A stretch of DNA of 13,148 nucleotides from an uncultured Polyangiaceae bacterium (lineage in GTDB: Bacteria > Myxococcota_A > Polyangia > Polyangiales > Polyangiaceae), in contig CAXSGJ010000030.1 in NCBI GenBank assembly GCA_964236865.1, positions 51,919 to 65,066 of the forward strand, read 5' to 3'. Position numbers and translations under genes: made by a program. The notes beneath the pieces were generated by a model that was given only the letters and a program-made list of their open reading frames with translations, was not told the origin of the DNA and searched no databases. Below are positions 3 to 13,143 of this stretch, piece by piece (position 1 is the stretch's first letter; each line of letters begins with the position of its first letter).

Positions 3-51
3 CGCGCCGCCCCGTCGCCAACACGCGCCGCCCCGTCGCCAACACGCGCCG
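3..51. repeat. Perfect 21-bp tandem direct repeat (2 full copies plus a partial third) touching the window edge
   Basis: Positions 3-23 and 24-44 are both cgcgccgccccgtcgccaaca; 45-51 (cgcgccg) restarts the unit. The period equals 7 codons and sits in the recQ reading frame, where it would read RAAPSPT-RAAPSPT. Confidence 0.9.
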
Positions 52-1877
52 TGCGCTCGACTTCTGAGTTGCCACGCGCAGCGCCACTCCCCGCGCGCGC
101 CCCGCCGCGTGCGCCGAGCACGGCCGCGCCCCGCGAACTCGCCGACTTGTTGCGCGAGCGCTTCGGCTTCAGCGCATTCCGCCCCCATCAGCAGGCGGTT
201 TGTGAAGCCGCCGCCCGCGGCGAGGACGTGCTGCTCGTCATGCCCACCGGCGCGGGCAAATCGCTCTGTTACCAGCTACCGGGGTTGGCTCGCGGTGGCA
301 CAACGCTCGTCGTGAGCCCGCTCATCGCATTGATGGAGGATCAGGTGATCCGGCTGCAGGCGCTCGGACTGCGCGCAGAACGCATTCACTCGGGCAGGTC
401 GCGGCTCGAGTCGCGGCAAGTGTGTGCGGACTACGTCGCAGGCGCGCTCGATTACCTCTTCATCGCGCCGGAGCGCCTGGGCGTGGCTGGGTTCCCCGAA
501 CTGCTTGCGCGGCGGCCTTTGGGCTTGATTGCCATTGATGAAGCGCACTGCATCTCGCAGTGGGGCCATGACTTTCGTCCGGACTATCGTCTGCTCGGGC
601 AGCGCCTGCCACTGCTGCGCCCGGCCCCGGTGGTGGCGCTCACGGCCACCGCCACCCCGCGCGTGCAGCAGGACATCGTGGCTCAACTCGGCTTGGGGGC
701 GGTGCGCCAATTCATTCATGGCTTTCGCCGGCACAATTTGGCGCTCGAAGCGTTGGAGGTTCCGCCCAAAGATCGACCGGGTCGCACGCTGCAATGGCTC
801 TCAGCGCCCGATCGCTTGCCGGCGATCGTGTATGCACCCACGCGCAAGGCGGCAGAGCACGTGGCGGCGGTGCTTGCGGCCCAGTTTCGCGCCCAGCCGT
901 ATCACGCAGGCTTGACGGCAGAGACGCGCGAGCGCGTGCAGGCGGACTTTCTCGCGGGCCGATTGGACGTGGTGGTCGCGACCGTCGCGTTCGGCATGGG
1001 CGTCGACAAGGCCGACGTTCGCACCGTGCTCCACTTGGCCCTACCCGGCAGTGTCGAGGCTTACTACCAGGAGATCGGTCGCGCGGGCCGGGACGGCAAG
1101 CCATCCCGCACCGTGCTCATGCACCACTTCGCCGATCGCAAGACGCACGAGTTCTTTTTGGACCGTGACTACCCGAGTGAGTCATTGCTCGAAAAGTTAT
1201 TCAAGGCGCTCAAATCGTCGCCCGTCACTCCGGACGCGCTACGCAAAAAAACGCGCGTCGCCAAGGGTGACTTCGAGAAGGCACTCGAGAAGCTGTGGAT
1301 CCACGGCGGCGTGCGGGGGATGCCAGAAGCTGAGCTCGTCCGCGGGCACGAAGCCTGGCGAGCGCCGTACGCCGCGCAGCGTGCCCTGCGTGCCGAACAA
1401 CTCGAGCTGGTCGGCAAATTTGCCCAAAGCCGTCAATGCCGCATGGTCGGGCTCGTGCGCCACTTCGGGGACGAGGCCGATTCCGGACAAGCCTGTGGTC
1501 GCTGTGACGTGTGCGCCCCGGAAGCGGGTATCGTCGCCAACTCGCTGGGGCCTCCGCCAAAGGTGAAGACTTCGGCAAAGCGCGGGCGTAAGACCGGCAG
1601 CCGGCGTGCACGCGGCGTCACGCGCGCCACGGGGGTTGCGCTCCCATCCAGCGGCGAGAGCGCCGCGCTAGTCGCCAGCTTGCGCGCCTGGCGCCTGCTG
1701 GAAGCCAAAAAGAAGCGCGTGCCAGCGTTTCGCATCTTGAGCAATCGCGCCCTGGTCGCGATTGCGGAGGCACGCCCGGCGAGCGCGGCCGCCCTGCGTG
1801 GCATCACCGGGATCGGGCCTAAAGTGCTGCAGAGCTACAGCACACAACTCGTGAGCTTATGCGCGCGCCATTCCTGA
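51..1877 (+). CDS. recQ: ATP-dependent DNA helicase RecQ (SF2) with RecQ-Ct zinc module and C-terminal HRDC domain
   Basis: Helicase motifs: 'FRPHQ', 'LLVMPTGAGKSLCYQLP' (from nt ~243), 'AIDEAHCISQWGHDFRPDY' (nt ~531-590), 'ALTATAT', 'VATVAFGMGVDKADVR', 'YYQEIGRAGRDG'. Four-Cys zinc module 'CRMVGLVRHFGD...CGRCDVC' (1437-1514). HRDC-like 'FRILSNRALVAIAEARPASAAALRGITGIGPKVLQSY' at the C-terminus. The GTG at 51 is only the first start codon inside the window. The frame has no stop back to nt 3, so the true start may lie upstream. Confidence 0.9.
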   Translation: MRSTSELPRAAPLPARAPPRAPSTAAPRELADLLRERFGFSAFRPHQQAVCEAAARGEDVLLVMPTGAGKSLCYQLPGLARGGTTLVVSPLIALMEDQVIRLQALGLRAERIHSGRSRLESRQVCADYVAGALDYLFIAPERLGVAGFPELLARRPLGLIAIDEAHCISQWGHDFRPDYRLLGQRLPLLRPAPVVALTATATPRVQQDIVAQLGLGAVRQFIHGFRRHNLALEALEVPPKDRPGRTLQWLSAPDRLPAIVYAPTRKAAEHVAAVLAAQFRAQPYHAGLTAETRERVQADFLAGRLDVVVATVAFGMGVDKADVRTVLHLALPGSVEAYYQEIGRAGRDGKPSRTVLMHHFADRKTHEFFLDRDYPSESLLEKLFKALKSSPVTPDALRKKTRVAKGDFEKALEKLWIHGGVRGMPEAELVRGHEAWRAPYAAQRALRAEQLELVGKFAQSRQCRMVGLVRHFGDEADSGQACGRCDVCAPEAGIVANSLGPPPKVKTSAKRGRKTGSRRARGVTRATGVALPSSGESAALVASLRAWRLLEAKKKRVPAFRILSNRALVAIAEARPASAAALRGITGIGPKVLQSYSTQLVSLCARHS

Positions 1878-1901: not shown

Positions 1902-2043
1902 CCGGTGGGTAGACCTGCCACCTCTGCCACACGAAGTTCTGGGGATAGTCTGATTTGATCATGCCGATGATAGATTTTGCTGGCTCGCTGTGGGTAACGG
2001 GGGACATTTCACACTCGCGAAACACTCGCGCAGGAGCTTCGAA

Positions 2044-3702
2044 ATGACGACGACTACTTGGGCGGGTTTGAAGGGGCGCACTCGCTGCGGAATTGCGGTT
2101 TTATGTGGATTTTCCTGGGCTTGTTCCACGAACGTCCCCACCGGCAGCGGGCCGAGCCGGCCGACGGACGGCGGCAACAGCAATGCCGGCGGCTCGAGCG
2201 GCACCGGCCTCACGGGAACGGTCGGGGGCGGGCCGGGCACGCTGTGCATTGATAACTCGTGTGGCGGAGGCATGGCCGCTCCGACGATCACCTGCGGTGA
2301 TGGCACCCTGACCAACAGCGAAGCCTGCGATGACGGCAACACCGTCTCGAACGACGGTTGCAGCGCAGACTGCTTGATGGTCGAGGTCGGCTATTCTTGC
2401 GTTGCGGCCGGCCAGCTCTGCTACCGCATCGCCAAGTGCGGCGACGGCCTGGCGGTCGACCCGGAAATCTGCGACGACGGCAACACCGCCGCCGGCGATG
2501 GCTGCTCTCCGCGGTGCACGTTGGAGCTAGGTTTCAAGTGCGCCGGCTCGCCCAGCATGTGCACCGCCACGACCTGCGGGGATGGCATGAAAGAGGGCGC
2601 AGAGAGCTGCGACGACGGGAACAAAAATCCCTACGACGGTTGCAGCTCGGTTTGCCAGACGGAGCCCAACTGCAAGGCGGGCGCGTGTGTTTCGGACTGT
2701 GGCGACGGCTTGGTGATCGGTGAAGAGTGCGATGATGGCAACACGCGCAGCGGGGACGGTTGCTCCGATCAGTGCAAGGTCGAAAAAGGATTCATGTGCG
2801 CGGCGGCAATGACCATGTCCGATACGCTGGACGTGCCGATCGTGTATCGCGACTTCCGCGAACACCAGGACCCCAATCACGGGCATCCAAATTTTCACTG
2901 GCCGGGCTTCAGTTACGCGACGCCAGGCATCGCCAAGCTGACGCTCGATGCCGATGGCAAGCCGCAATACGACGGCACGGGCAACCTGCACGTGGATAGC
3001 CAGGCAAATTTTGCCTCCTGGTATCGCGACACCGACTACAGCCTCAAGTTCATCGACAAGCTCACGCTCACGAACGCGGCTGGCGTGTACACTTATGATA
3101 ACCCCGCATTCTTCCCGCTCGACACGCGCGGCTGGGTGGTGGCCGCCGCGACACCGGAGGCGCCCTACGGCGGTCATAATTTCGCCTTCACGAGCGAAGT
3201 GCACTACTACTTTCAATACGACGCAGCCAAGGCGGCGACGCTCTCGTTCCGCGGGGACGACGACGTCTGGGTGTTCGTGTCCGGGCGACTCGTGGTCGAC
3301 TTGGGCGGGGTACACGACGTCGTTTCTGGCTCGGTGGTCCTGAGCCCAACGACGGTCGATACCATCAAAGCGCCGCTTAATTTGGTTCAAGACAAGATCT
3401 ACGAGATCGACGTCTTTCAAGCCGAACGCAACCCGGGCGCCTCGAATTACAAGCTATCCCTGAGCGGCTTCAACCCAAACCCCACGCTTTGCACGCCGGT
3501 GTGCGGCGACGCGGTCCTCAGCATCGGCGAGCAATGCGATGACGGCGCCAACATGGGCGGCTACGGTAAGTGCGCGGCGGGTTGCGTGCTCACCGAATAT
3601 TGCGGCGATGGCAAGGTCGAAGGGCCGGAGGACTGCGACGACGGCAATCACATCGACACGGACGGCTGCAACAATGCGTGCCGGGACCTGAGCGTGCAGT
3701 GA
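2044..3702 (+). CDS. Secreted (possibly lipid-anchored) protein: four Myxococcus-type cysteine-rich repeats, a fibro-slime (PA14-like) domain, then two more cysteine-rich repeats
   Basis: The ATG at 2044 is preferred over the GTG at 1990 because AGGAG (2032-2036) lies 7 nt upstream. The N-terminus 'MTTTTWAGLKGRTRCGIAVLCGFSWAC' looks like a signal peptide and is followed by a Gly/Ser linker. Repeats follow 'CGDG.....E.CDDGN....DGCS..C'. The central region carries fibro-slime hallmarks: 'IVYRDF..H.....HPNF', 'FFPLD', 'HNFAFTSEVHYYFQY', 'FRGDDDVWVFVSGRLVVDLGGVH', 'FQAERNPGASNYKL'. Confidence 0.85.
   Translation: MTTTTWAGLKGRTRCGIAVLCGFSWACSTNVPTGSGPSRPTDGGNSNAGGSSGTGLTGTVGGGPGTLCIDNSCGGGMAAPTITCGDGTLTNSEACDDGNTVSNDGCSADCLMVEVGYSCVAAGQLCYRIAKCGDGLAVDPEICDDGNTAAGDGCSPRCTLELGFKCAGSPSMCTATTCGDGMKEGAESCDDGNKNPYDGCSSVCQTEPNCKAGACVSDCGDGLVIGEECDDGNTRSGDGCSDQCKVEKGFMCAAAMTMSDTLDVPIVYRDFREHQDPNHGHPNFHWPGFSYATPGIAKLTLDADGKPQYDGTGNLHVDSQANFASWYRDTDYSLKFIDKLTLTNAAGVYTYDNPAFFPLDTRGWVVAAATPEAPYGGHNFAFTSEVHYYFQYDAAKAATLSFRGDDDVWVFVSGRLVVDLGGVHDVVSGSVVLSPTTVDTIKAPLNLVQDKIYEIDVFQAERNPGASNYKLSLSGFNPNPTLCTPVCGDAVLSIGEQCDDGANMGGYGKCAAGCVLTEYCGDGKVEGPEDCDDGNHIDTDGCNNACRDLSVQ
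2293..2799 (+). repeat. Four consecutive ~35-50 aa cysteine-rich repeats (protein level, with recurring tgcga[tc]ga[ct]gg[cg]aac DNA cores)
   Basis: 'CGDGTLTNSEACDDGNTVSNDGCSADC', 'CGDGLAVDPEICDDGNTAAGDGCSPRC', 'CGDGMKEGAESCDDGNKNPYDGCSSVC', 'CGDGLVIGEECDDGNTRSGDGCSDQC'. Confidence 0.85.
2836..3489 (+). other. Fibro-slime / PA14-like domain region of the 2044-3702 protein
   Basis: Motif string listed for the CDS (RDF...HPNF, FFPLD, GDDDVWVF..G.L..DLGG.H, F.AER....SN). Boundaries are approximate. Confidence 0.7.
3502..3681 (+). repeat. Two C-terminal cysteine-rich repeats (one degenerate, one canonical)
   Basis: 'CGDAVLSIGEQCDDGANMGGYGKCAAGC' and 'CGDGKVEGPEDCDDGNHIDTDGCNNAC'. Confidence 0.8.
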
Positions 3703-3716
3703 CCACCGGTACGGGG

Positions 3717-3747
3717 CGAGCGCGGTCGGCAGTCGATCACGCGCTCG
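3717..3747. terminator. 8-bp GC-rich inverted repeat between convergent genes (overlaps the kinase stop codon)
   Basis: cgagcgcg (3717-3724) and cgcgctcg (3740-3747) are exact reverse complements separated by a 15-nt loop. No U-tract on either side. Confidence 0.3.
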
Positions 3748-5755
3748 GTCCGTTCAAGGTCGCGGCGATTTTAGCGAGGTCGATGATCACAGCGAGCAAC
3801 TCGGCTTGGTCGAAGGGCTTGCGCAAGTGCATCTGGAAGCCCGCCTCGAGAGCACGATTGCGATCCTCCGGATACGCATAAGCGGTCAGCGCCGCCGCGG
3901 GCGTTTTCATTAGTGTGGGGTTCGAGCGAACGGCGCGGATGAAGGCGTAACCGTCCAAACCGGGCAAGCCGACATCGGAGATGATCACGTCGATCGGACT
4001 GCTGCCGAGCAGCTCCAGGGCGTGCTCGGCGTCGAAGGCGCTCGTGACTTCGACGCCGCTCTCACTCAAAATTGCGCTGACGACTTCCCGCGAATCGAAG
4101 TCATCTTCCACGAGCAGCAAGCGCAGGCCGAGCAGCACGGGCTGTTCGGCGGGTGATGACCGCTTCCATGAGTCGGGCCCGCCGCGGGTCGCTTCCAGGC
4201 TGTCGTGGACCATGGGCAAGGTGACGATGAACGTAGCCCCATTGCCCTCACCGGCGCTCTCCGCGTGAATTTCCCCGCCGTGCAGCTCGACCAGGTGTTT
4301 GGTGATCGCGAGGCCAAGGCCGAGGCCGCCATGGTTCCGGCGAATCGAGCCGTCTTCTTGAGAAAATTTCTGGAATAGGCGGGCCAAGAAGTCGTGCTTG
4401 ATGCCGGCGCCCGTATCCGAGACGACGATGCGCACCTGTTCCCCGGTCTCGGCAACGCTCACGCTGACGCGGCCGTGCTTGGGCGTGAATTTGACGGCGT
4501 TGCCGACCAGGTTCCAGATGATTTGTTGGATCCGCCCGGGATCCGCCATGACCGGTCCGGCATCGCGGTCGATGTCGACGGACAGTTCAACGCTCTTGGC
4601 TAGCGCGGCGGGCCGTATCGCATCGAGCGCCGCCTCCACCGCGTCGGCTGGGTTGGTCAGACCCGGCTCGATCCGCATCTTGCCCGAGATGATGCGCGAT
4701 ACGTCGAGCAGGTCATCGACGAGGCGCGCTTGGGCGATGGCGTTACGCTCGATTGCCGCCAGCGCCTTTTCGCGTTTTTCCGAGGCGACGGTACCGGCGT
4801 TCAGCATCCTCGCCCAGCCCAGGATCGCGTTGAGCGGCGTGCGCAGCTCGTGGGACACGGTGGCCAGAAACTCGTCCTTCATCTTGGCGGTCAGCAGCGC
4901 CTCTTGGTGAAGCAGCTTTTGGTCGTGCACGTCGGTGCACGTGCCCATCCACGACAACACGTTGCCGGCGTCGTCACACAGCGTGACCGCGCGAATCAAA
5001 AACCAGCGGTAGATGCCGGCCGCGTTGCGAAAGCGACCTTCGACTTCGTACGGTGTCTTGGTCTCGAGCGCGTTGTTCCAGTGCTTGATGGCCAACGGCC
5101 GCGTCTCTGGATCGTGCACGGACGCCCAGCGTTCGTCATTGGGATCCTCGAGAGCTAGCCCCGTGAACTCTGACCAGCGCCGATTGCGGAACGTGACCAT
5201 TCCCTTTGCGTCGGAGATCCAAATCAGCTGCGGCATCGTTTCGACGAGCGAGCGGAGCTGCCCCTCGCTGGTCAGGGCTCGACGCTGCGCCTCTTGCTCC
5301 CGCTCAGCCAGTCGCGCGTGCGCCTGTTCGAGATCCAGGTGCGCGATCTCGAGCTGTTGACCGCGCACGTTCGAGACGCGCGCGGATTCCGCGAACGCAA
5401 CGGCTTTAGGCAAGATGGGCACGAGCAATAACGCGGTCGCAACGGACGCGGTGGCCGTGATGATGCGCACGCCAGCGTCCGCCCAATACACCGGGTGCCA
5501 CACGGTCACGACATCCAAAAAGTGCGTCAGCCCGCAGGACAAGATGAAGGTACCGAAGGCCCAATACACCCACGCGAAGGGGATATTTCGGATGCGGCGT
5601 ACCAGTATGGCCAGCGTCGAGGCGATTGCGGCGTACGCCACACCGATCAACGAGTTGGCCGACACTTGGGTCCAGACCATGGCCGGTGACCACAAGTAAC
5701 AATGGCCGTGGGGCATGAAGCCTTGTCCGAATAGATGCTCTAGCCAGTGCCACAT
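3737..5755 (-). CDS. Hybrid sensor histidine kinase: ETR1-like three-helix membrane (ethylene-binding-type) domain, coiled coil, PAS, HisKA, HATPase_c, receiver
   Basis: The ATG at 5755 has GGAG (complement of 5763-5766) 7 nt upstream. H-box 'SHELRTPLNAILGW' (His codon at 4850-4852). N-box 'IIWNLVGNAVKFT', G1 'DTGAGI', G2 'GGLGLGLAI'. Receiver motifs 'LLLVEDD', 'DVIISDVGLPGLDG' (Asp codon at 3974-3976), 'ALTAYA', 'HLRKP'. A PAS-like segment spans 'LVETMPQLIWISD...GIYRWFLIRAVTLCDDAGNVLSWMGTCTDV'. The N-terminal domain is listed as a separate entry. Confidence 0.92.
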   Translation of the reverse strand: MWHWLEHLFGQGFMPHGHCYLWSPAMVWTQVSANSLIGVAYAAIASTLAILVRRIRNIPFAWVYWAFGTFILSCGLTHFLDVVTVWHPVYWADAGVRIITATASVATALLLVPILPKAVAFAESARVSNVRGQQLEIAHLDLEQAHARLAEREQEAQRRALTSEGQLRSLVETMPQLIWISDAKGMVTFRNRRWSEFTGLALEDPNDERWASVHDPETRPLAIKHWNNALETKTPYEVEGRFRNAAGIYRWFLIRAVTLCDDAGNVLSWMGTCTDVHDQKLLHQEALLTAKMKDEFLATVSHELRTPLNAILGWARMLNAGTVASEKREKALAAIERNAIAQARLVDDLLDVSRIISGKMRIEPGLTNPADAVEAALDAIRPAALAKSVELSVDIDRDAGPVMADPGRIQQIIWNLVGNAVKFTPKHGRVSVSVAETGEQVRIVVSDTGAGIKHDFLARLFQKFSQEDGSIRRNHGGLGLGLAITKHLVELHGGEIHAESAGEGNGATFIVTLPMVHDSLEATRGGPDSWKRSSPAEQPVLLGLRLLLVEDDFDSREVVSAILSESGVEVTSAFDAEHALELLGSSPIDVIISDVGLPGLDGYAFIRAVRSNPTLMKTPAAALTAYAYPEDRNRALEAGFQMHLRKPFDQAELLAVIIDLAKIAATLNGPSA
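5411..5701 (-). other. Ethylene-binding-domain (EBD)-like three-TM module, homologous to the Arabidopsis ETR1 N-terminus
   Basis: Kinase residues 32-83 align without gaps to ETR1 23-74 as I recall that sequence. 'VAYAAIA' matches 'LAYFSIP'. 'IPFAWVYWAFGTFILSCGLTHFL' matches '[23 protein letters not shown]'. Helix 3 'ATALLLVPILP' matches 'ATALMLVHIIP' after a 3-residue shorter loop. The Cys codon (5534-5536) and His codon (5522-5524) correspond to ETR1 Cys65/His69. Confidence 0.75.
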
Positions 5756-5825: not shown

Positions 5826-5853
5826 ATTCTAGCCATGGGCTCGCGGCCGTCAC
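5826..5853 (-). promoter_or_regulatory. Candidate sigma70-type promoter for the kinase gene
   Basis: On the minus strand this reads GTGACG (5853-5848), a 16-nt spacer, then TAGAAT (5831-5826). It lies ~70 nt upstream of the ATG at 5755. This is a pattern match only. Confidence 0.25.
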
Positions 5854-5952: not shown

Positions 5953-6786
5953 ATGTACCGACCCGCCTTCAAATTCTTGCCGCGCCTGGCCCCGTGGGCC
6001 GTGCTCGTGGCGCTCGCACCGCTCGCCTGCGGTGGCCCTGTCGACAGTAGCCCGGCGGATGCGGGGCAGGATGTTCCGACCGAGCCTCCGACCGAGCCTT
6101 CACCCCCTGAACCCAATGCCTCCGCCCCCGCAGCCTCGGAGCCCGCACCGCGCCCGCACCGCGTCGGCTGCGCTCCGCCGAGCGGCGTGAGCAATGCGCC
6201 CCGCACCATCGCCGAGACGGTCGCGATGTTGAACGCCATGCCCAAGCCGGTGACGCTGCCCTGTTTCTTAGAGGCGCTCGCTCGCCCGCTCGAGATCAAC
6301 GCGACCAACAGCCTGTTCAGCGCGCAGCCGTCGCAGGGCGCGCGCACGCCGCGCATATTCCTGTTTCGCGATCTCAACACCATGTCGGTGGTGCCCGCCG
6401 GTACCGGCGCGCCACTCCTGGAGTTTGGTGAACAGCGCCCAAACTACCAGTCTCTCAAGGCCGAGCTCGAGTTTCCGATTGTCGGCCAGTTGTCGGACAG
6501 CGCCCCGTTCGAGCGGGTGCAATTCAGCGAAGAGCTGTCGAATTGCGGCGTCTGCCATAACGCAGAGCGGGTCGAGATCAGCGCGACTGGCATCCGGCAG
6601 TTCGTCTCACAATCGCTGCGGCCCTTGCCCCAAGATGCAGTCCCCGCTGCCTACTTGCAGCACGAGCTGGCCGTCTGCGACAGTACCTTGGAGCCGGGCC
6701 GCTGCGCCTTGCTCGATGGCCTGCTCGGCTGGGGTCTGGTCACGGATCGCCCGTTCCCACTCGAGATGGCGACATTCGGCGGGTAG
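5953..6786 (+). CDS. Putative lipoprotein with Pro-rich linker and a single CxxCH motif; function unknown
   Basis: Signal peptide plus lipobox-like 'WAVLVALAPLAC|GG' (Cys codon at 6028-6030). Low-complexity linker 'PTEPPTEPSPPEPNASAPAASEPAPRP'. 'NCGVCHNAE' is encoded at 6544-6558. The mature part contains six Cys. I recognise no family. Confidence 0.7.
   Translation: MYRPAFKFLPRLAPWAVLVALAPLACGGPVDSSPADAGQDVPTEPPTEPSPPEPNASAPAASEPAPRPHRVGCAPPSGVSNAPRTIAETVAMLNAMPKPVTLPCFLEALARPLEINATNSLFSAQPSQGARTPRIFLFRDLNTMSVVPAGTGAPLLEFGEQRPNYQSLKAELEFPIVGQLSDSAPFERVQFSEELSNCGVCHNAERVEISATGIRQFVSQSLRPLPQDAVPAAYLQHELAVCDSTLEPGRCALLDGLLGWGLVTDRPFPLEMATFGG
6076..6099 (+). repeat. Perfect 12-bp tandem duplication inside the lipoprotein linker
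   Basis: ccgaccgagcct occurs twice (6076-6087 and 6088-6099), encoding PTEP-PTEP. Confidence 0.9.
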
Positions 6787-6789
6787 CGC

Positions 6790-6972
6790 TCAGCCGGGTT
6801 TTTTTTTCTTGGCGCGCTTTGCCGGCCGCTTACTAGCCTTTTTAGGCCAACCCTTTTCCATCTGCGCATACGACTCACGGGAGACCGTCGAACGCGATTT
6901 GGGTCGGCTTTTGCCCGCTTTTTTTCGTTTGTTGATGTTGTTGACCAGCGAGTTTTTTTTCTTAGCGGCCAC
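6790..6972 (-). CDS. 60-aa highly basic Lys-rich mini-protein (hypothetical)
   Basis: Sequence: 'MAAKKKNSLVNNINKRKKAGKSRPKSRSTVSRESYAQMEKGWPKKASKRPAKRAKKKKPG'. The GTG start overlaps the stop of the upstream same-strand gene by 11 nt. Non-Lys codons follow the high-GC host style (tcg ctg gtc aac aac atc aac), which favours this frame over the mirror + frame. Short and compositionally odd, so confidence is moderate. Confidence 0.5.
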   Translation of the reverse strand: MAAKKKNSLVNNINKRKKAGKSRPKSRSTVSRESYAQMEKGWPKKASKRPAKRAKKKKPG

Positions 6973-7387
6973 GTTGACCTCGGCTCTCCGCGCGCGGCTT
7001 GGTCTTCGCGTAGCGCTCTAACAGACGCTTGCCCTTGGCGGCTAGCCGGGCTGCCGCGGCGGCTGTCTTCGGAACCGGCTCGCCCCAAGCGTGGGCCGAA
7101 AGAGCAAGGCGCGTGGGTTCGCCCTGGGCATCGAGCATCGGGCCGCGCGGGTTCGCGAAGTGACGGCGCAAAAATGAGCCTTTGCGCCTGAGCTTGTCCG
7201 GCGTGTCCGCGGCGCCCTTCACGCCGGGCTTCAAGTGCGCGCCTTCTTTGTCCGCGAAATATTGGCGGCCGGCGTTGGTGAGTCCGCCCTTCGGATCTTT
7301 GCGTGACGCAGTCCGCCCCACGCGGGCTTTCGACGCGCGCACACCGCGCGTCGAAGAGGCTGTCTTTTTGCTCGCTTTGGTAACCAT
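6962..7387 (-). CDS. 141-aa basic hypothetical protein
   Basis: The internal ATG at 7387 is preferred over the ORF-track start at 7462 because GGAGG sits 3 nt upstream (minus strand ...ctacGGGGAGGcgATG). Motifs 'DPKGGLTNAGRQYF', 'LKPGV', 'RRKGSFLRRHF' and 'GEPTRLALSAHAWG' resemble a small conserved family I associate with phage and bacterial hypothetical proteins. That link is unverified. Confidence 0.6.
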   Translation of the reverse strand: MVTKASKKTASSTRGVRASKARVGRTASRKDPKGGLTNAGRQYFADKEGAHLKPGVKGAADTPDKLRRKGSFLRRHFANPRGPMLDAQGEPTRLALSAHAWGEPVPKTAAAAARLAAKGKRLLERYAKTKPRAESRGQRGR

Positions 7388-7465
7388 CGCCTCCCCGTAG
7401 CGAGACTCATGCCAAGCGCAGGCGCCGTCTAAGTACGCTGCCTGTGACCACGCCAGGATCACACG

Positions 7466-8272
7466 CTACATGTGGGGGGCGCCCGCATCCGTAATTTCTG
7501 TCGGGGGTTTGGGGATACAGAACGTGGCGTTCAGCAATTGAAACTTCAGGCCGCTGGCGGCGGACGCTCGTTGCACCTTCCCGCGCGCGATCACGGTTTG
7601 ACCGTTGGCAGGCATGCTGCAGCACATCGCCGAGTCGTCGCCGGTGCACGTGTTGCCGGGCAACGCGACGGCTTCCGGCCTGCCGTCGAGCACGATGTTC
7701 ATCATGAGCGCGTGGCAGCAGGCGCCGGGAGCACACTTTTGACTGCCGGGCGGCCGCGCTGGCGTGAGCGCGAGTGGACCTTGGACCGCCACCATTTGGC
7801 CGACATGCTTGTCCGCATTGTACTGCAGCTGTCCCCATTCCTCCGCGATCACACCGGCCTCACAGTCCGGGATGGCGGTCGGTGCCTTCGCGCATTTGCG
7901 GTGCACCTGGCAGGAGCTGTTCCAACTCACCGCGGCCGCGGGCTGCGCCGCGCGAGCAGCCAGTGCCTCCGCTGCCTCTTGCTCCGCTTCGTCCAACTTA
8001 TCGGGTTTGTGCGCCGCGACCTCGGGATGACCTTGGGGCATGGTCGGATGGCCAGGCGCAGCGGCCGCGCTCGTCATGGCCGACGGGGCCAGGTCCTGGT
8101 TCCAGTCGCGGTGCGTCAACGCAGGTTTGACGGGGCCTTCTGCTTTTGATTTGCACCCGACCATGAGCAGCGCCGCGTAGGCTGAGCCGGCCAGCAGCGC
8201 GCGCGCAGATCTCGCGCTGCACCGCGCGAAAGCTGATGCAGAACCGAAGCTTACCCAAGTCACGCTGTTCAT
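7466..8272 (-). CDS. Cys-rich putative lipoprotein with a His/Met-rich segment; function unknown
   Basis: Signal peptide plus lipobox 'ALLAGSAYAALLMVGC|KSK'. The segment 'GHPTMPQGHPEVAAHKP' is followed by an Ala/Glu-rich helix. The C-terminal domain has 10 Cys, including two CC doublets ('GACCHALMM', 'SAMCCSMP'). Confidence 0.7.
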   Translation of the reverse strand: MNSVTWVSFGSASAFARCSARSARALLAGSAYAALLMVGCKSKAEGPVKPALTHRDWNQDLAPSAMTSAAAAPGHPTMPQGHPEVAAHKPDKLDEAEQEAAEALAARAAQPAAAVSWNSSCQVHRKCAKAPTAIPDCEAGVIAEEWGQLQYNADKHVGQMVAVQGPLALTPARPPGSQKCAPGACCHALMMNIVLDGRPEAVALPGNTCTGDDSAMCCSMPANGQTVIARGKVQRASAASGLKFQLLNATFCIPKPPTEITDAGAPHM

Positions 8273-8399
8273 CTCGCCCGGAAGTTAGCCGGTCGGCTTC
8301 CAGCCGCAAGTGCCGGCGCCGAAAATCGCCTGGAGCGCGCCGGGCTCTTCGGCTAAGCCTGAACCGCCGTGCCGCGCCGGTAAGCGGTCAGCGAGCCCC

Positions 8400-11300
8400 A
8401 TGCCCCTTTCCGCATTTCACGTGGCCGTGCAGCGCTGGTTCAGCGAACGGCTAGGGGAGCCCACGCGACCGCAGCGCGAGGGTTGGCCTGCAATCCGCGA
8501 CGGTAAGCACACGCTCATCGCGGCGCCCACCGGCTCGGGCAAAACCTTAGCCGCATTCCTGTCTGCGTTGGATGAGCTATTGACGCGGGGTGGCGCGCTC
8601 GAGGCGAGCACCCAGGTGCTGTATATCTCGCCGTTGAAGGCTCTCGCCAGCGACATACACAAGAATCTCGAGGCGCCTCTGGCCGAGATCCGTGCGCTCG
8701 ACCCGAGCCTGCCCGAGCTGCGCGTTGCCGTGCGTACCGGCGACACCTCAGCCAAGAGCCGGGCCTCCATGAGCAAGCGCCCGCCGCATATTCTGGTCAC
8801 TACCCCAGAATCTGCCTATATCTTGCTGACCAGCGAGGGCGGGCGGCAGATGCTGAGCACCGTGCGCACGGTGATCGTGGACGAGATCCACGCCTTGGCG
8901 CGCGACAAACGCGGCTCCCACTTGGCCCTCACGCTCGAACGCCTGGATGCGCTCACGGGCTGCCCGGTGCAGCGGATCGGTCTGTCCGCCACGCAGAAAC
9001 CGATCGAAGAGGTCGCGCAGTTTCTGGTCGGCGTGGGTCGCGAGTGCGTGCTCGTCGACGCCGGGCATCTGCGCACGATCGACCTAGGCATCGAGCTGCC
9101 GCTTTCACCGCTGACCGCGGTGTGCTCGCACGAGGTATGGGACGAAATCTACGAGCGTATCGCGGTGCTAATCCGCGAGCATCGGACCACGTTGGTGTTC
9201 GTCAACACGCGCAAGATGGCGGAGCGTGTTGCGGCTCGGCTAGGGACTCGCCTGGGGGCGGCAGAGGTTGCCTGCCACCACGGCAGCCTGGCGGCGCCAC
9301 GCCGGCACGACGCGGAGCAACGCCTCAAAGGGGGGCAGCTGAAAGTGCTGGTCGCCACTGCGTCACTCGAGCTCGGCATCGACATCGGGGACGTCGACTT
9401 GGTGCTGCAAATTGGCGCTTCCCGCTCCATCGCCACGCTGCTCCAGCGCGTGGGTCGCGCCGGTCACGGGGTGCAGCGCACGCCGAAAGGCCGCATGTTC
9501 CCGCTGACCTTGGACGAGCTGGTCGAGGCGGCCGCGCTCGTACGCAGTATCCGCGCCGGCACGCTGGATCGCACGCCGCAGCCCGGGCGTCCGCTCGACA
9601 TTTTGGCCCAGCAGATCGTAGCCGCTTGCGTGGCGGAGACTTGGGACGAGGCGCTCTTGTTCCAGATGCTGCGGCGCGCTTGGCCGTACCGTGAGCTCAC
9701 CCGTAGCGACTTCGACGAAGTCGTGAAGATGCATACCGAAGGGCGTTGGGCGCTGCTGCACCGCGACGGCATCGGCCAGCGGCTTCGGGCCACGCGGCGC
9801 GCGCGCTTGACGGCTATCACGTCGGGCGGCGCCATCGCGGACAACGCCGACTACCAAGTGATCCTCGATCCGGAAGGCACGCTCGTCGGCACGCTGAACG
9901 AGGACTTCGCGATCGAGTCGAACGGCGGAGACATTTTCCAGTTGGGCACGGCTTCCTGGCGGATTCTGCGCGTCAGCGGCGGCGTGGTGCGCGTGGCGGA
10001 CGCGCAGGGCTCGCCGCCCACGATCCCCTTTTGGCTCGGTGAAGCACCGGCGCGCACCCGCGAGCTATCGCATGAAATTTCGCGCGTACGCGAGCACGCT
10101 GCGGTCGATCCGCGACTCATGGCGGACGACATTGGCGACGCCGCCGCGCGGCAGCTCTCGGAATATGCGTCAGCTGGCGTGAGCGTGCTGGGCGTCGTGC
10201 CCACGCAAAGTCGCGTCGTTTTGGAACGCTTCTTCGACGAGAGCGGCGGCATGCAGCTCGTGTTGCACGCGCCCTTTGGCGGCCGCATCAATCGCGCTTG
10301 GGGCCTCGCCTTGCGCAAGCGTTTCTGTCGCGGTTTTGGCTTCGAGCTGCAAGCGGCGGCCAATGAAGAGGCGATCGTGCTGTCGCTTGGCCCGCAGCAC
10401 AGCTTCCCGCTCGAGGAAGTGTTCGATTACCTGAATCCAGAGACGGCAGAGGCGCTTTTGGTCCAAGCGCTCTTGCCGGCGCCAATGTTCAAGACGCGCT
10501 GGCGCTGGAACGTGTCCCGCGCCTTGCTGGTGGAGCGCATGCGCGGGGGTAAGCGCACGCCACCGCCGCTCGTCCGCATGCGCGCCGATGATCTACTAGC
10601 TGCGAGCTTTCCCGCGGCGGTGGCCTGCGGCGAAACCCTGCCGCCCGGCGACATCGAAGTGCCCATGGATCACCCCTTGGTGCGGCAAACCGTCTTCGAT
10701 TGTTTGAACGAAGCCATGGATATCGAGGGATTTTTGGCGGTATTACGCGGCTTGCGCGATGGCAGCATCGAGCGCGTCGCGATTGACTCCCCCGCGCCCT
10801 CGGTGTTCGCGCACGGCATCCTGGCGGCCCAGCCGTACACATTTTTGGACGACGCCCCGCTCGAGGAGCGCCGCACTCAAGCGGTGCTCAGCCGTCGCAC
10901 GCTGGACGTAAAGTCTGCCGACGAGCTCGGCGCGCTCGACCCCGAGGCCATCCGCCGCGTCCGCGAGGAAGCCTGGCCCGCGCCGACCTCCGCGGAAGAG
11001 GTGCACGAAGCGCTGCTTTGGATGGGCTATGCAACCGTCGAAGAAGCGCAACCCTGGTCGGGTTGGATGCAAGAGCTCGCCAGCACGGGCCGCGTGGAGC
11101 TCGTGGGCGACCGCTACTTTGCTTTCGAGGCACCGCGCGAGCCGAAGGAAGTGTGGCGCGGTCGTCTGGAAGCGCTCGGGCCCGTGTCCAGCGACGACCC
11201 GCTGCTGTTCGAGCTCGAGAGTGAAGGCTGTGTCCTGCGTGGGCGCTTCGAGGGCCGCGCTGGTTGGTGCAGTCGGCGCCTGCTTTCACGCATTCACCGT

Positions 11301-12266
11301 TACACGCTGGAGGGTCTCAGAAAGGAGATTGAGCCCGTGACCGGCGTGGAATTCCTTCGCTTTCTAGCCTCCTGGCAACACCTGGACTCCGATAAGAAGC
11401 TCGACGGACCGCGCGGCGTGCTGGAAGTGATCCGCAAGCTTTCTGCATTCGAGGTGCCGGCGCTGGCCTGGGAGGCGAGCGTGCTGCCGGCCCGCGTCCG
11501 CGGCTACAAACGAGAATGGCTGGACGAGCTCACGCTGTCGGGAGAGGTCGTTTGGGGAAGGCTATGGGGTAGCGGCGCGGCGCCCATTCGCAGTACGCCG
11601 GTGTGCCTCGTCCCGCGCGATCACCTGGAGTCTTGGCTTGGCCTATCCCACGCCCCGCCGGCCTCCGAGTTCGGCCATGCCGCACGGCTCATTCATGGCT
11701 TGCTCGCCGCGCGCGGCGCCATGTTTGCGCAAGGCCTACAGCGCGCATCCGAGCTGCACATGGATGAGCTCGACGAAGGCTTGGCGGAGCTCATCGCGCG
11801 CGGCCTCGTCACCTGCGACTCGTTCAGCGGTTTGCGGTCGCTGCTGCTCAGCCCGTCCAAGCGCCGTTCCGCTGTAAAGTCGGCCGGGCGCTGGAGCCTG
11901 CTGCGCCAGGAGGCGCCTACGGCACCAGCGGCGGAATTTGTCGCGCGTCAATTATTGCAACGCACCGGCGTCGTGTTTCGAAAGACCGTCGCGCGCGAGA
12001 AGCAGCCGTTGCCCTGGCGCGACTTGCTGCGCGTGCTGCGCACCCTCGAGGCGCGCGGTGAAGTGCGCGGGGGTCGCTTCGTAGCCGGCTTCGACGGCGA
12101 GCAGTACGCCCTGCCCGAAGCCGTCGCCTTGCTCCGCGCCGTGCGTCGCCGCGGCCCGGGCGAGCCGCTCCACGCATCCGCCGCCGATCCGCTAAATTTT
12201 CGCGGGATCCTCACGCCCGACGAGCGCGTCTCCCCGCTGTCCCGTCAAAAGGTGCTGGTCGCCTAG
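8400..12266 (+). CDS. lhr: Lhr-family large ATP-dependent DExH helicase (long form)
   Basis: Motifs: 'LIAAPTGSGKTLAAFL' (from nt ~8523), 'VIVDEIHAL' (nt ~8871), 'GLSATQ', 'HHGSL', 'LVATASLELGIDIG', 'LQRVGRAGH'. These are followed by a long Lhr-type extension ('FQLGTASWRILRV', 'RGEVRGGRFVAGFDGEQYALPEAV'). The ATG at 8400 ('MPLSAFHVAVQRWF') is preferred over the GTG at 8310, because it gives the usual ~40-aa lead-in to motif I and leaves 127 bp for divergent promoters. Confidence 0.88.
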   Translation: MPLSAFHVAVQRWFSERLGEPTRPQREGWPAIRDGKHTLIAAPTGSGKTLAAFLSALDELLTRGGALEASTQVLYISPLKALASDIHKNLEAPLAEIRALDPSLPELRVAVRTGDTSAKSRASMSKRPPHILVTTPESAYILLTSEGGRQMLSTVRTVIVDEIHALARDKRGSHLALTLERLDALTGCPVQRIGLSATQKPIEEVAQFLVGVGRECVLVDAGHLRTIDLGIELPLSPLTAVCSHEVWDEIYERIAVLIREHRTTLVFVNTRKMAERVAARLGTRLGAAEVACHHGSLAAPRRHDAEQRLKGGQLKVLVATASLELGIDIGDVDLVLQIGASRSIATLLQRVGRAGHGVQRTPKGRMFPLTLDELVEAAALVRSIRAGTLDRTPQPGRPLDILAQQIVAACVAETWDEALLFQMLRRAWPYRELTRSDFDEVVKMHTEGRWALLHRDGIGQRLRATRRARLTAITSGGAIADNADYQVILDPEGTLVGTLNEDFAIESNGGDIFQLGTASWRILRVSGGVVRVADAQGSPPTIPFWLGEAPARTRELSHEISRVREHAAVDPRLMADDIGDAAARQLSEYASAGVSVLGVVPTQSRVVLERFFDESGGMQLVLHAPFGGRINRAWGLALRKRFCRGFGFELQAAANEEAIVLSLGPQHSFPLEEVFDYLNPETAEALLVQALLPAPMFKTRWRWNVSRALLVERMRGGKRTPPPLVRMRADDLLAASFPAAVACGETLPPGDIEVPMDHPLVRQTVFDCLNEAMDIEGFLAVLRGLRDGSIERVAIDSPAPSVFAHGILAAQPYTFLDDAPLEERRTQAVLSRRTLDVKSADELGALDPEAIRRVREEAWPAPTSAEEVHEALLWMGYATVEEAQPWSGWMQELASTGRVELVGDRYFAFEAPREPKEVWRGRLEALGPVSSDDPLLFELESEGCVLRGRFEGRAGWCSRRLLSRIHRYTLEGLRKEIEPVTGVEFLRFLASWQHLDSDKKLDGPRGVLEVIRKLSAFEVPALAWEASVLPARVRGYKREWLDELTLSGEVVWGRLWGSGAAPIRSTPVCLVPRDHLESWLGLSHAPPASEFGHAARLIHGLLAARGAMFAQGLQRASELHMDELDEGLAELIARGLVTCDSFSGLRSLLLSPSKRRSAVKSAGRWSLLRQEAPTAPAAEFVARQLLQRTGVVFRKTVAREKQPLPWRDLLRVLRTLEARGEVRGGRFVAGFDGEQYALPEAVALLRAVRRRGPGEPLHASAADPLNFRGILTPDERVSPLSRQKVLVA

Positions 12267-12339: not shown

Positions 12340-13143
12340 TCAGCGTGGTGGCGACAGAAACTCGCTCACCGCGGCGGCGAAGGCGGCGGGGGCCGTGAGC
12401 ATGGCCATGTGCTGTTGACCATCCAGCACCACTGCGCGCGCGTTGGGCAAGCGCGCGGTGAGGGTTTGGGCGCCAGCAATCATGCGCCGTGGGCTCGCGC
12501 CACCGGTCAACATCAACGTCGGCAGGCCCACGCTGGCGAGATCGGCCCAATCGAGCGAGAACGCGCGTTGTACGCGTGAATCGTAAGACAGCGTGTGCGC
12601 GAGCACGCTCACCATTTGGCTCCACGCCGGGCCGCTCCGCATCGCTTGCAGATCGCTTTCGGTAGTGCGCGGGCCCTCGCGAAAGAAGGTCTCCACTGCC
12701 AGCTCCCGCTGACCCGCTGCCAGCAGCGCGTCCAGGCGCTCCGGCAAATCCTCCGCGATGCGATCGGCCGCGTCGAAGAAGACCGGCGGCTCATAGGCGA
12801 TGAGCCGTTCGAGCTTGTCGGGGTGACGCGCAGCAACCTGAAGGGAGAGAAGCGCGCCGGACGAATGACCGAGCAGGTCGAGGGGACCCGGAATCGCTCT
12901 CAATAATGCTAAAATGTCTTCCAACTCGCGCTCGGGCGCATAGAGCGGGCTATCGCCGCTATTGCCTCGACCGCGTCGATCCATGACGTACACACAGCGT
13001 TCGCGCGCGAGTACCTGCACGGTGCTCGTCCACAGGCGCGCTCCGAACAAAGCGCCAGATACGACGACCAAAGCGCGCCCGTCGCCATGACTTTCCGCTG
13101 CGATCGCGGTGCCGTCTGCTGATTCGACGAGGAGCTCTGCCAT
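12340..13143 (-). CDS. Alpha/beta-fold hydrolase
   Basis: 'VYVMDRRGRGNSG' is the typical D.RG.G.S turn. Nucleophile elbow 'LLGHSSGA' (Ser codon at 12862-12864). C-terminal catalytic His context 'VLDGQQHMAML'. Substrate is unknown. Confidence 0.85.
   Translation of the reverse strand: MAELLVESADGTAIAAESHGDGRALVVVSGALFGARLWTSTVQVLARERCVYVMDRRGRGNSGDSPLYAPERELEDILALLRAIPGPLDLLGHSSGALLSLQVAARHPDKLERLIAYEPPVFFDAADRIAEDLPERLDALLAAGQRELAVETFFREGPRTTESDLQAMRSGPAWSQMVSVLAHTLSYDSRVQRAFSLDWADLASVGLPTLMLTGGASPRRMIAGAQTLTARLPNARAVVLDGQQHMAMLTAPAAFAAAVSEFLSPPR

Follow-up and report, generated by a model that had tools for sequence, protein, structure and literature searches.

We analysed a 13,148-nucleotide stretch of DNA (hereafter the window) from an uncultured Polyangiaceae bacterium (assembly GCA_964236865.1, contig CAXSGJ010000030.1, positions 51,919 to 65,066 of the forward strand), the minus strand of which carries, at positions 3737..5755, the gene of a hybrid sensor histidine kinase of 672 amino acids (aa) that begins with a membrane domain of the plant ethylene receptor type. 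That this open reading frame (ORF) is a real gene follows from Pfam matches over its whole length, its orthologues and its start context. It starts with an ATG, preceded by GGAG 9-12 nt upstream and by an in-frame stop nine codons upstream, and its translation has full-length orthologues (66-73% identity) in the Polyangiaceae and Myxococcales genome bins L003-L008, the N-terminal pattern MW..LE..FG..FMPHGHCYLW being common to the window kinase and its close relatives. Two overlapping ORFs, at 5406-5753 on the minus strand and 5415-5699 on the plus strand, were dismissed as by-products of the high G+C content.

The kinase is organised, from its N- to its C-terminus, as an ethylene-binding-type domain (EBD), a long helix, and then PAS, HisKA, HATPase and receiver (REC) domains, all coordinates below being on the minus strand. 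The ETR1_N (PF25487) domain occupies aa 26-120 (5396..5680), and is followed by the PAS domain at aa 166-279 (4919..5260; PAS_3 E=8.9e-14, PAS_4 E=5.6e-10, PAS E=1.5e-8). The HisKA dimerisation and phospho-acceptor domain lies at aa 292-357 (4685..4882; PF00512 E=4.4e-17), with His302 in the motif SHELRTP; the HATPase_c catalytic domain lies at aa 405-515 (4211..4543; PF02518 E=1.3e-29), with the N box at 415, the G1 motif DTGAGI at 447 and the G2 motif GGLGLGL at 476; and the receiver domain (Response_reg) lies at aa 547-657 (3785..4117; PF00072 E=6.4e-22), with Asp551/552, the phospho-acceptor Asp594, Thr624 and Lys646. HisKA, HATPase_c and Response_reg each score above their Pfam cutoffs, and the window kinase has the complete H, N, G1 and G2 boxes and the complete Asp/Asp/Asp/Thr/Lys receiver set of a hybrid two-component kinase. 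In NCBIfam, it showed only generic hybrid-kinase similarity, under every curated cutoff. The Pfam matches thus agree with the original prediction, made on this DNA from its letters alone, which had read the layout as EBD, coiled coil, PAS, HisKA, HATPase and REC, with PAS standing for the GAF domain of ETR1.

The profile match, the pairwise alignment and the domain order all mark the N-terminal module as a true homologue of the ETR1 ethylene-binding domain. The profile PF25487 ('ETR1_N, Ethylene receptor 1-like N-terminal domain') matched with E=2.2e-30 and 105.2 bits (gathering score, 27) over its positions 2-96 of 97, i.e., virtually the full profile. The profile check suggested in the original prediction therefore placed the module in the ETR1_N family and not in an unrelated membrane-sensor family. 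For the pairwise comparison, the plant reference was P0027, a database 'ethylene receptor' carrying ETR1_N and GAF, which we take to be 98% identical to the N-terminus of Arabidopsis ETR1 (five differences, none at a key residue). BLASTP of aa 1-135 of the window kinase against P0027 gave 33% identity over 94 aa (E=4e-12), with a gapless stretch pairing aa 30-86 with ETR1 21-77. The gapless match that had been predicted between aa 32-83 and ETR1 23-74 holds in this alignment, and all the matched residues named with it are present (Y41/Y32, I44/I35, P59/P50, W62-V63, F67-G68, F70-I71, C74-G75 and T77-H78), as is the helix 3 match between ATALLLVPILP and ATALMLVHIIP.

The hydropathy plot has three peaks, all before aa 130 and none later, and the AlphaFold2 model (built from 18 sequences; mean pLDDT 84.3) has three corresponding helices, in keeping with the three hydrophobic helices first noticed in 5411-5755, which is aa 1-115 of the kinase. 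Membrane helix 1 spans aa 24-54 (5594..5686, minus strand; AlphaFold2 and hydropathy) and membrane helix 2 spans aa 61-86 (5498..5575, minus strand; AlphaFold2). The third modelled helix, aa 90-150 (5306..5488, minus strand; AlphaFold2), is unbroken, so that membrane helix 3 continues directly into the cytoplasmic signalling helix. As Lys and Arg are confined to the loop 52-60 and to the region after helix 3, the positive-inside rule points to an N-out/C-in topology, that is, three transmembrane helices with the N-terminus outside, as had been expected. No solved ethylene-binding domain was found by sequence search or by Foldseek with the AlphaFold2 model, all the structure-search matches (E at least 0.89) being unrelated helical proteins.

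The domain is not unusual: a Pfam family is devoted to it, and a HMMER search with aa 1-135 against 1.84 billion cluster representatives (of 50%-identity clusters) gave 7,876 matches with E<=1e-3, of which 5,498 had E<=1e-10. All the close relatives were already tagged with ETR1_N in the database. The 150 best cluster representatives were aligned with the window kinase, AzoEtr1 (an ethylene receptor of Azospirillum brasilense, see below) and P0027, and the residue counts given hereafter refer to this alignment.

Ethylene binding is predicted from seven residues of ETR1, namely D25, Y32, I35, P36, I62, C65 and H69 (PMC11819568, PMC6682694). The window kinase retains Tyr41 (Tyr32), Ile44 (Ile35), Ile71 (Ile62), Cys74 (Cys65) and His78 (His69). 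Asp25 is replaced by Asn34 (codon 5654-5656) and Pro36 by Ala45 (codon 5621-5623), and the count of five identical residues with these two exchanges, given in the original prediction, is correct. Helix 1 bears Gln30, Asn34, Tyr41, Ile44 and Ala45. Helix 2 bears Ile71 as well as Cys74 (codon 5534-5536) and His78 (codon 5522-5524), the predicted ligands of Cu(I), which stand one helical turn apart, as equivalents of Cys65 and His69. Helix 3 bears Asp93 and Arg97, the latter at the position of ETR1 Lys91 (codon 5465-5467), where a basic residue is thus retained. The kept residues are nearly invariant in the relatives: C74, H78 and I44 each occur in 151 of the 152 aligned sequences, and Y41 and I71 each in 149.

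The two exchanges had been treated as minor in the original prediction. Both of them concern residues among the seven predictive ones, and the ETR1 D25N mutant, although it functions as a receptor in planta, has an affinity at least 100-fold lower (PMC10266040, PMC11971883). It is worth noting that Asp25 of ETR1 bonds to both His69 and Lys91 (PMC10266040, PMC11971883), and that the ETR1 K91R mutant retains 63% of the wild-type ethylene binding and is yet hyposensitive (PMC10266040). Among 1,221 sequences, 3.67% have a natural Asn at position 25, 'most commonly in cyanobacteria' (PMC10266040, PMC11971883). Given the D25-to-N34 and P36-to-A45 replacements, the sequence does not predict a canonical high-affinity receptor.

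The motif FMPHGHCYLW (aa 13-22; 5690..5719, minus strand) directly precedes helix 1 in the periplasm and has a low AlphaFold2 confidence. This motif is strongly conserved (P15 in 144, H16 in 149, G17 in 146, C19 in 150 and W22 in 146 of the 152 aligned sequences), its counterpart in AzoEtr1 is LPHGVCLFW, and its C19 corresponds in the alignment to the N-terminal Cys of plant ETR1. According to the literature, a single N-terminal Cys at this site possibly forms a dimer disulfide. The conserved Pro-His-Gly-His of the motif could be a copper-entry site.

The Asn at position 34 is not peculiar to the window kinase, since the 150 closest representatives comprise 62 proteins with Asn and 88 with Asp at this position. 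Asn34 is paired with Arg97 in 59 of the 62 Asn-type relatives, and Asp34 with Lys97 in 82 of the 88 Asp-type ones, these pairing counts not being independent events. Further markers of the Asn-type subgroup are Gln30 (versus His), Tyr64 (versus Phe), Asp81 (versus Glu) and Asp93 (versus Ser). Gln30 is a helical turn away from Asn34, as Asp93 is from Arg97, in both cases toward the periplasmic side. From the alignment, we regard these substitutions as a conserved set, not as decay, and we infer that the buried negative charge may have been moved from helix 1 to helix 3 rather than lost. Among 28 Asn-type proteins taken from genomes, ETR1_N was found in 28, HisKA in 26, a receiver in 20 and PAS in about 12; from this composition it appears that the domain is always wired to a kinase. 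A neighbour-joining tree computed without the signature columns requires seven Asp/Asn changes, and its largest pure Asn clade holds 21 of the 62 members. As the alignment has only about 100 columns, too few to tell a single from a repeated origin of the Asn type, we do not claim monophyly. In the literature searched, the Asn state as the mark of a conserved, mainly myxobacterial subgroup appears undescribed, and so does the presence in this subgroup of exchanges at Pro36 and Lys91 and of a new Asp93.

At the position of Pro36, the aligned sequences (n=152) have Ser in 101 cases, Pro in 29 and Ala in 18. Ser, not Pro, is thus the commonest residue there in the closest bacterial relatives, including cyanobacterial proteins of the Asp/Lys type. 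Taken at face value, these counts suggest that the seven-residue rule may exclude most of the bacterial family.

A scan of 185,579 species genomes yielded at least 576 related loci, and the taxonomic counts that follow are from the best 80. The closest loci (L003-L008; 79-83% domain identity) are those of the Polyangiaceae and Myxococcales genome bins. The complete Asn-type signature was found in 27 of the 80 loci. Whereas the published Asn variants are mostly cyanobacterial, these Asn-type loci are almost all from Myxococcota, including Sorangium cellulosum So ce56 (L018), the remaining ones being from two gammaproteobacterial bins, one Bacteriovoracaceae bin and a few bins without classification. 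The cyanobacterial loci among the 80 were all of the Asp/Lys type. Canonical Asp/Pro/Lys-type kinases also occur in the Myxococcota bins L056, L059, L062, L068 and L076, so that Myxococcota bins hold both classes, the canonical one and the Asn/(Ala,Ser)/Arg one (L003-L018). The Asn-type kinase of S. cellulosum So ce56 (NC_010162.1, within 3371665-3388018) has about 516 aa and the full signature; this strain, which is cultivable and sequenced, would be a practical organism for the study of the subgroup.

AzoEtr1 of A. brasilense, a 525-aa protein with an EBD-PAS-histidine kinase layout, was validated in 2025 as a receptor that binds 14C-ethylene, and it controls biofilm formation and root colonisation (PMC11819568). 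This work outdates two statements of the original prediction, namely that the cyanobacterial SynEtr1 was the only bacterial case with experimental support, and that the non-cyanobacterial homologues were essentially uncharacterised. By tblastn of the window domain against plasmids, we recovered the AzoEtr1 gene on replicon p1 of A. brasilense Sp7 (L001:3001-4578). The recovered 525-aa ORF has Asp35 and Cys75, matching the D35A and C75A mutants of the published study (PMC11819568). AzoEtr1 and the window kinase are collinear over the EBD, PAS and kinase regions (BLASTP E=4e-54), and their binding domains are about 34% identical. They have in common a non-cyanobacterial host, the PHGxC motif, a three-helix EBD, a PAS domain and a histidine kinase, along with the Cys and His copper ligands and the Tyr, Ile and Ile of the site. 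However, AzoEtr1 keeps all seven ETR1 residues (including Asp35 and Pro46) and a Lys at the Lys91 position, where the window kinase has Asn34, Ala45 and Arg97. In addition, AzoEtr1 has no fused receiver and is directly followed by a response-regulator gene, whereas the receiver of the window kinase is part of the protein itself and no partner gene lies close by.

Arabidopsis ETR1 resembles the window kinase (33% identity over 94 aa) in its topology, its Cys65/His69 copper site and its association of a kinase with a receiver. It differs from it by having GAF in place of PAS, and Cys4 and Cys6 in place of the one N-terminal Cys of the PHGHC motif. The window kinase carries every catalytic motif and presumably operates by phosphorelay, whereas ETR1 signals mainly through CTR1. 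The Asn state is common to the window kinase and to the natural or engineered Asp25Asn variants, which have a low affinity (PMC10266040, PMC11971883), but the window kinase also departs from ETR1 in having lost Pro36, replaced Lys91 by Arg and gained Asp93. As to the cyanobacterial receptors, for which our comparison is drawn from published descriptions, SynEtr1 (Slr1212 of Synechocystis PCC 6803) and GeiEtr1/2 (Geitlerinema) have, like the window kinase, an EBD fused to a histidine kinase (PMC6682694). They possess a single N-terminal Cys and all seven conserved residues, and SynEtr1, which also carries a cyanobacteriochrome light sensor, signals by phosphotransfer (PMC6682694).

Together, these data lead us to lean towards the proposal that the window kinase senses ethylene through Cu(I), with a much lower affinity and a faster release than ETR1, SynEtr1 and AzoEtr1, and passes the signal by a phosphorelay from His302 to Asp594 and then to partners. 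Of the ethylene-sensor reading in the original prediction, the part that stands is a true EBD homologue with its Cu(I) ligands; the part that does not is the canonical high-affinity site, two of the seven residues being lost. In the mechanism that we propose, each monomer would hold one Cu(I) between Cys74 and His78 within the membrane, and ethylene, a membrane-soluble gas, would bind to this copper. The change would be relayed via a polar contact between Asn34 in helix 1 and Arg97 in helix 3, and then down helix 3 and the signalling helix and through PAS, so as to alter the autophosphorylation of His302. Asp594 in the fused receiver would then accept the phosphoryl group and hand it on to an Hpt protein and a response regulator encoded elsewhere. 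With Asn for Asp25, Ala for Pro36 and Arg for Lys91, much weaker binding and much faster release are expected; we would therefore expect, from the residues involved, a sensor that reverses rapidly and responds to higher ethylene levels rather than one that integrates ethylene at the part-per-billion scale.

Several points weigh against this proposal. The window kinase keeps five of the seven residues and so falls short of the seven-residue rule, and the Ala found at its position 36 is, as cited in later papers, the very alanine-scan substitution that defined Pro36 as required (PMC11819568, PMC6682694). When produced in yeast, ETR1 D25N showed no detectable binding of 14C-ethylene (PMC10266040). 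Our literature searches found no binding test of any bacterial protein of the Asn type or of the Ser/Ala-36 type. The contacts between Asn34, His78, Arg97 and Asp93 are proposed from sequence positions. Lastly, a response regulator, an Hpt protein and a copper chaperone or ATPase were sought in the window and in the orthologous loci, and none was found. With no partner or copper gene nearby, the neighbours give no hint of the input or output of the kinase.

The replacement of two of the seven ethylene-binding residues, and the joint change of at least six site or nearby positions (Q30, N34, A/S45, Y64, D93 and R97), which looks like a re-specialisation, could also mean that the same fold and copper site serve another ligand. 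This ligand might be a larger alkene, carbon monoxide, nitric oxide or an isonitrile, or the kinase might report copper availability or Cu(I) oxidation (oxygen or redox stress), in either case with no response to ethylene at natural levels; that Myxococcota keep two kinase classes is what different jobs would lead one to expect. We nevertheless consider a change of ligand, the main rival to our proposal, unlikely, as the residues of ETR1 that hold copper and line the site are unchanged except at positions 25 and 36, as the D25N form of ETR1 remains able to signal ethylene in plants (PMC10266040, PMC11971883), and as we came across no ETR1_N domain shown by experiment to have another physiological ligand. 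At the other extreme, the original prediction had in effect proposed a canonical, high-affinity ETR1-like receptor in which both substitutions have no effect. The identity of five key residues, including both copper ligands, speaks for it, and the Ser/Ala majority at the Pro36 position among the closest relatives leaves room for Pro36 to matter less in the bacterial versions. Still, such a receptor is improbable, as D25N alone lowers the affinity of ETR1 at least 100-fold and abolishes its detectable binding in yeast (PMC10266040), and as every receptor with demonstrated ethylene binding, namely AtETR1, SynEtr1, AzoEtr1 and (by prediction) GeiEtr1/2, keeps the seven residues (PMC11819568, PMC6682694).

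The well-formed PAS domain between the membrane module and the kinase, and the loss of two 'required' residues, would also suit an ETR1_N module that has lost its sensing role and is kept just for membrane anchoring and dimerisation, the cytoplasmic PAS being the real sensor. Such a degenerate role is very improbable in view of the near invariance of C74, H78, Y41, I44, I71, T77 and PHGHC across 150 relatives at about 50% identity. Neither would it be expected to produce paired changes at contacting positions, and PAS occurs in only about 12 of the 28 Asn-type proteins. The strict keeping of the copper ligands and pocket residues in a large, diverse and kinase-fused subgroup argues for a working sensor and not for a mere anchor.

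Beyond the low-affinity ethylene sensing that we favour for the window kinase itself, we put forward, as a speculative idea that we would not bet on, that the proteins with Gln30/Asn34/(Ala,Ser)45/Tyr64/Asp93/Arg97 make up a separate class of copper-based gas sensors, found mainly in myxobacteria, in which the buried negative charge would have been moved from position 34 in helix 1 to Asp93 in helix 3, one turn from Arg97. If this were true, they would be either fast, low-affinity ethylene sensors suited to gradients in predation or swarming, or sensors of a different gas. An ethylene-forming-enzyme homologue of Myxococcus stipitatus DSM 14675 was selected for ethylene production in Escherichia coli (PMC9101411), and ethylene could thus be a signal made by myxobacteria themselves and not only a plant cue. 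The window contains no ethylene-forming-enzyme gene, and literature searches linking myxobacteria and ethylene receptors returned nothing relevant.

The kind of system described here is known: it is catalogued, it is experimentally anchored in a non-cyanobacterium, and natural Asn25 variants of it have been described. No new kind of system is revealed, and a specialist is unlikely to be surprised. Its interest lies elsewhere. Ethylene sensing in non-photosynthetic bacteria has been shown in one species only, of the genus Azospirillum. The window kinase adds the predatory myxobacteria (Polyangiaceae, including S. cellulosum So ce56) to the lineages carrying the receptor fold, and it belongs to a whole branch of the family that normally carries substitutions which, in ETR1, make the affinity two orders of magnitude lower or leave no detectable binding. 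This subgroup is therefore a natural test of both the Asp25-His69-Lys91 model of high affinity and the seven-residue prediction rule.

Concerning its surroundings, the kinase gene looks both monocistronic and orphan, its downstream neighbour being convergent and its upstream neighbour divergent. A weak sigma-70-like promoter match (GTGACG-16-TAGAAT; 5826..5853, minus strand) precedes the ATG by about 70 nt; as the consensus scan gave one site versus 0.5 expected in shuffles, it is a suggestion only. The window gave no match to any Rfam RNA family. On the upstream side, a divergent ORF of 277 aa (5953-6786, plus strand), with no Pfam or NCBIfam match, has a 58%-identical copy at the equivalent position in L008. 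It is followed by the gene of a DUF6321 protein (6962-7462, minus strand), by an ORF of 268 aa with no family match (7466-8272, minus strand), copies of which (41-44% identity) occur in L003, L005 and L008, by the gene of an Lhr-type helicase of 1,318 aa (8310-12266, plus strand), and by that of an alpha/beta hydrolase (12340-13143). On the downstream side, the convergent gene (1990-3702, plus strand), the stop codon of which is separated from that of the kinase by 34 nt, encodes a myxobacterial cysteine-rich-repeat/fibro-slime/PA14 protein of 570 aa, and is itself followed, further from the kinase, by the gene of a RecQ helicase with HRDC (51-1877, plus strand).

The Lhr gene, the ORF 7466-8272, the alpha/beta hydrolase gene and the RecQ gene are syntenic with the kinase gene in the Polyangiaceae bins L003, L005, L007 and L008. 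The only conserved neighbours in the orthologous loci are Lhr, RecQ, the alpha/beta hydrolase and two proteins without family matches. The kinase gene is thus bracketed by two DNA helicase genes, RecQ and Lhr. The 570-aa neighbour, with its five cysteine-rich acidic repeats (TIGR02232, DUF4215) and its fibro-slime/PA14 region, is a marker of myxobacterial origin; this protein and the Polyangiaceae bins that hold the closest relatives make the soil habitat assumed in the original prediction plausible.

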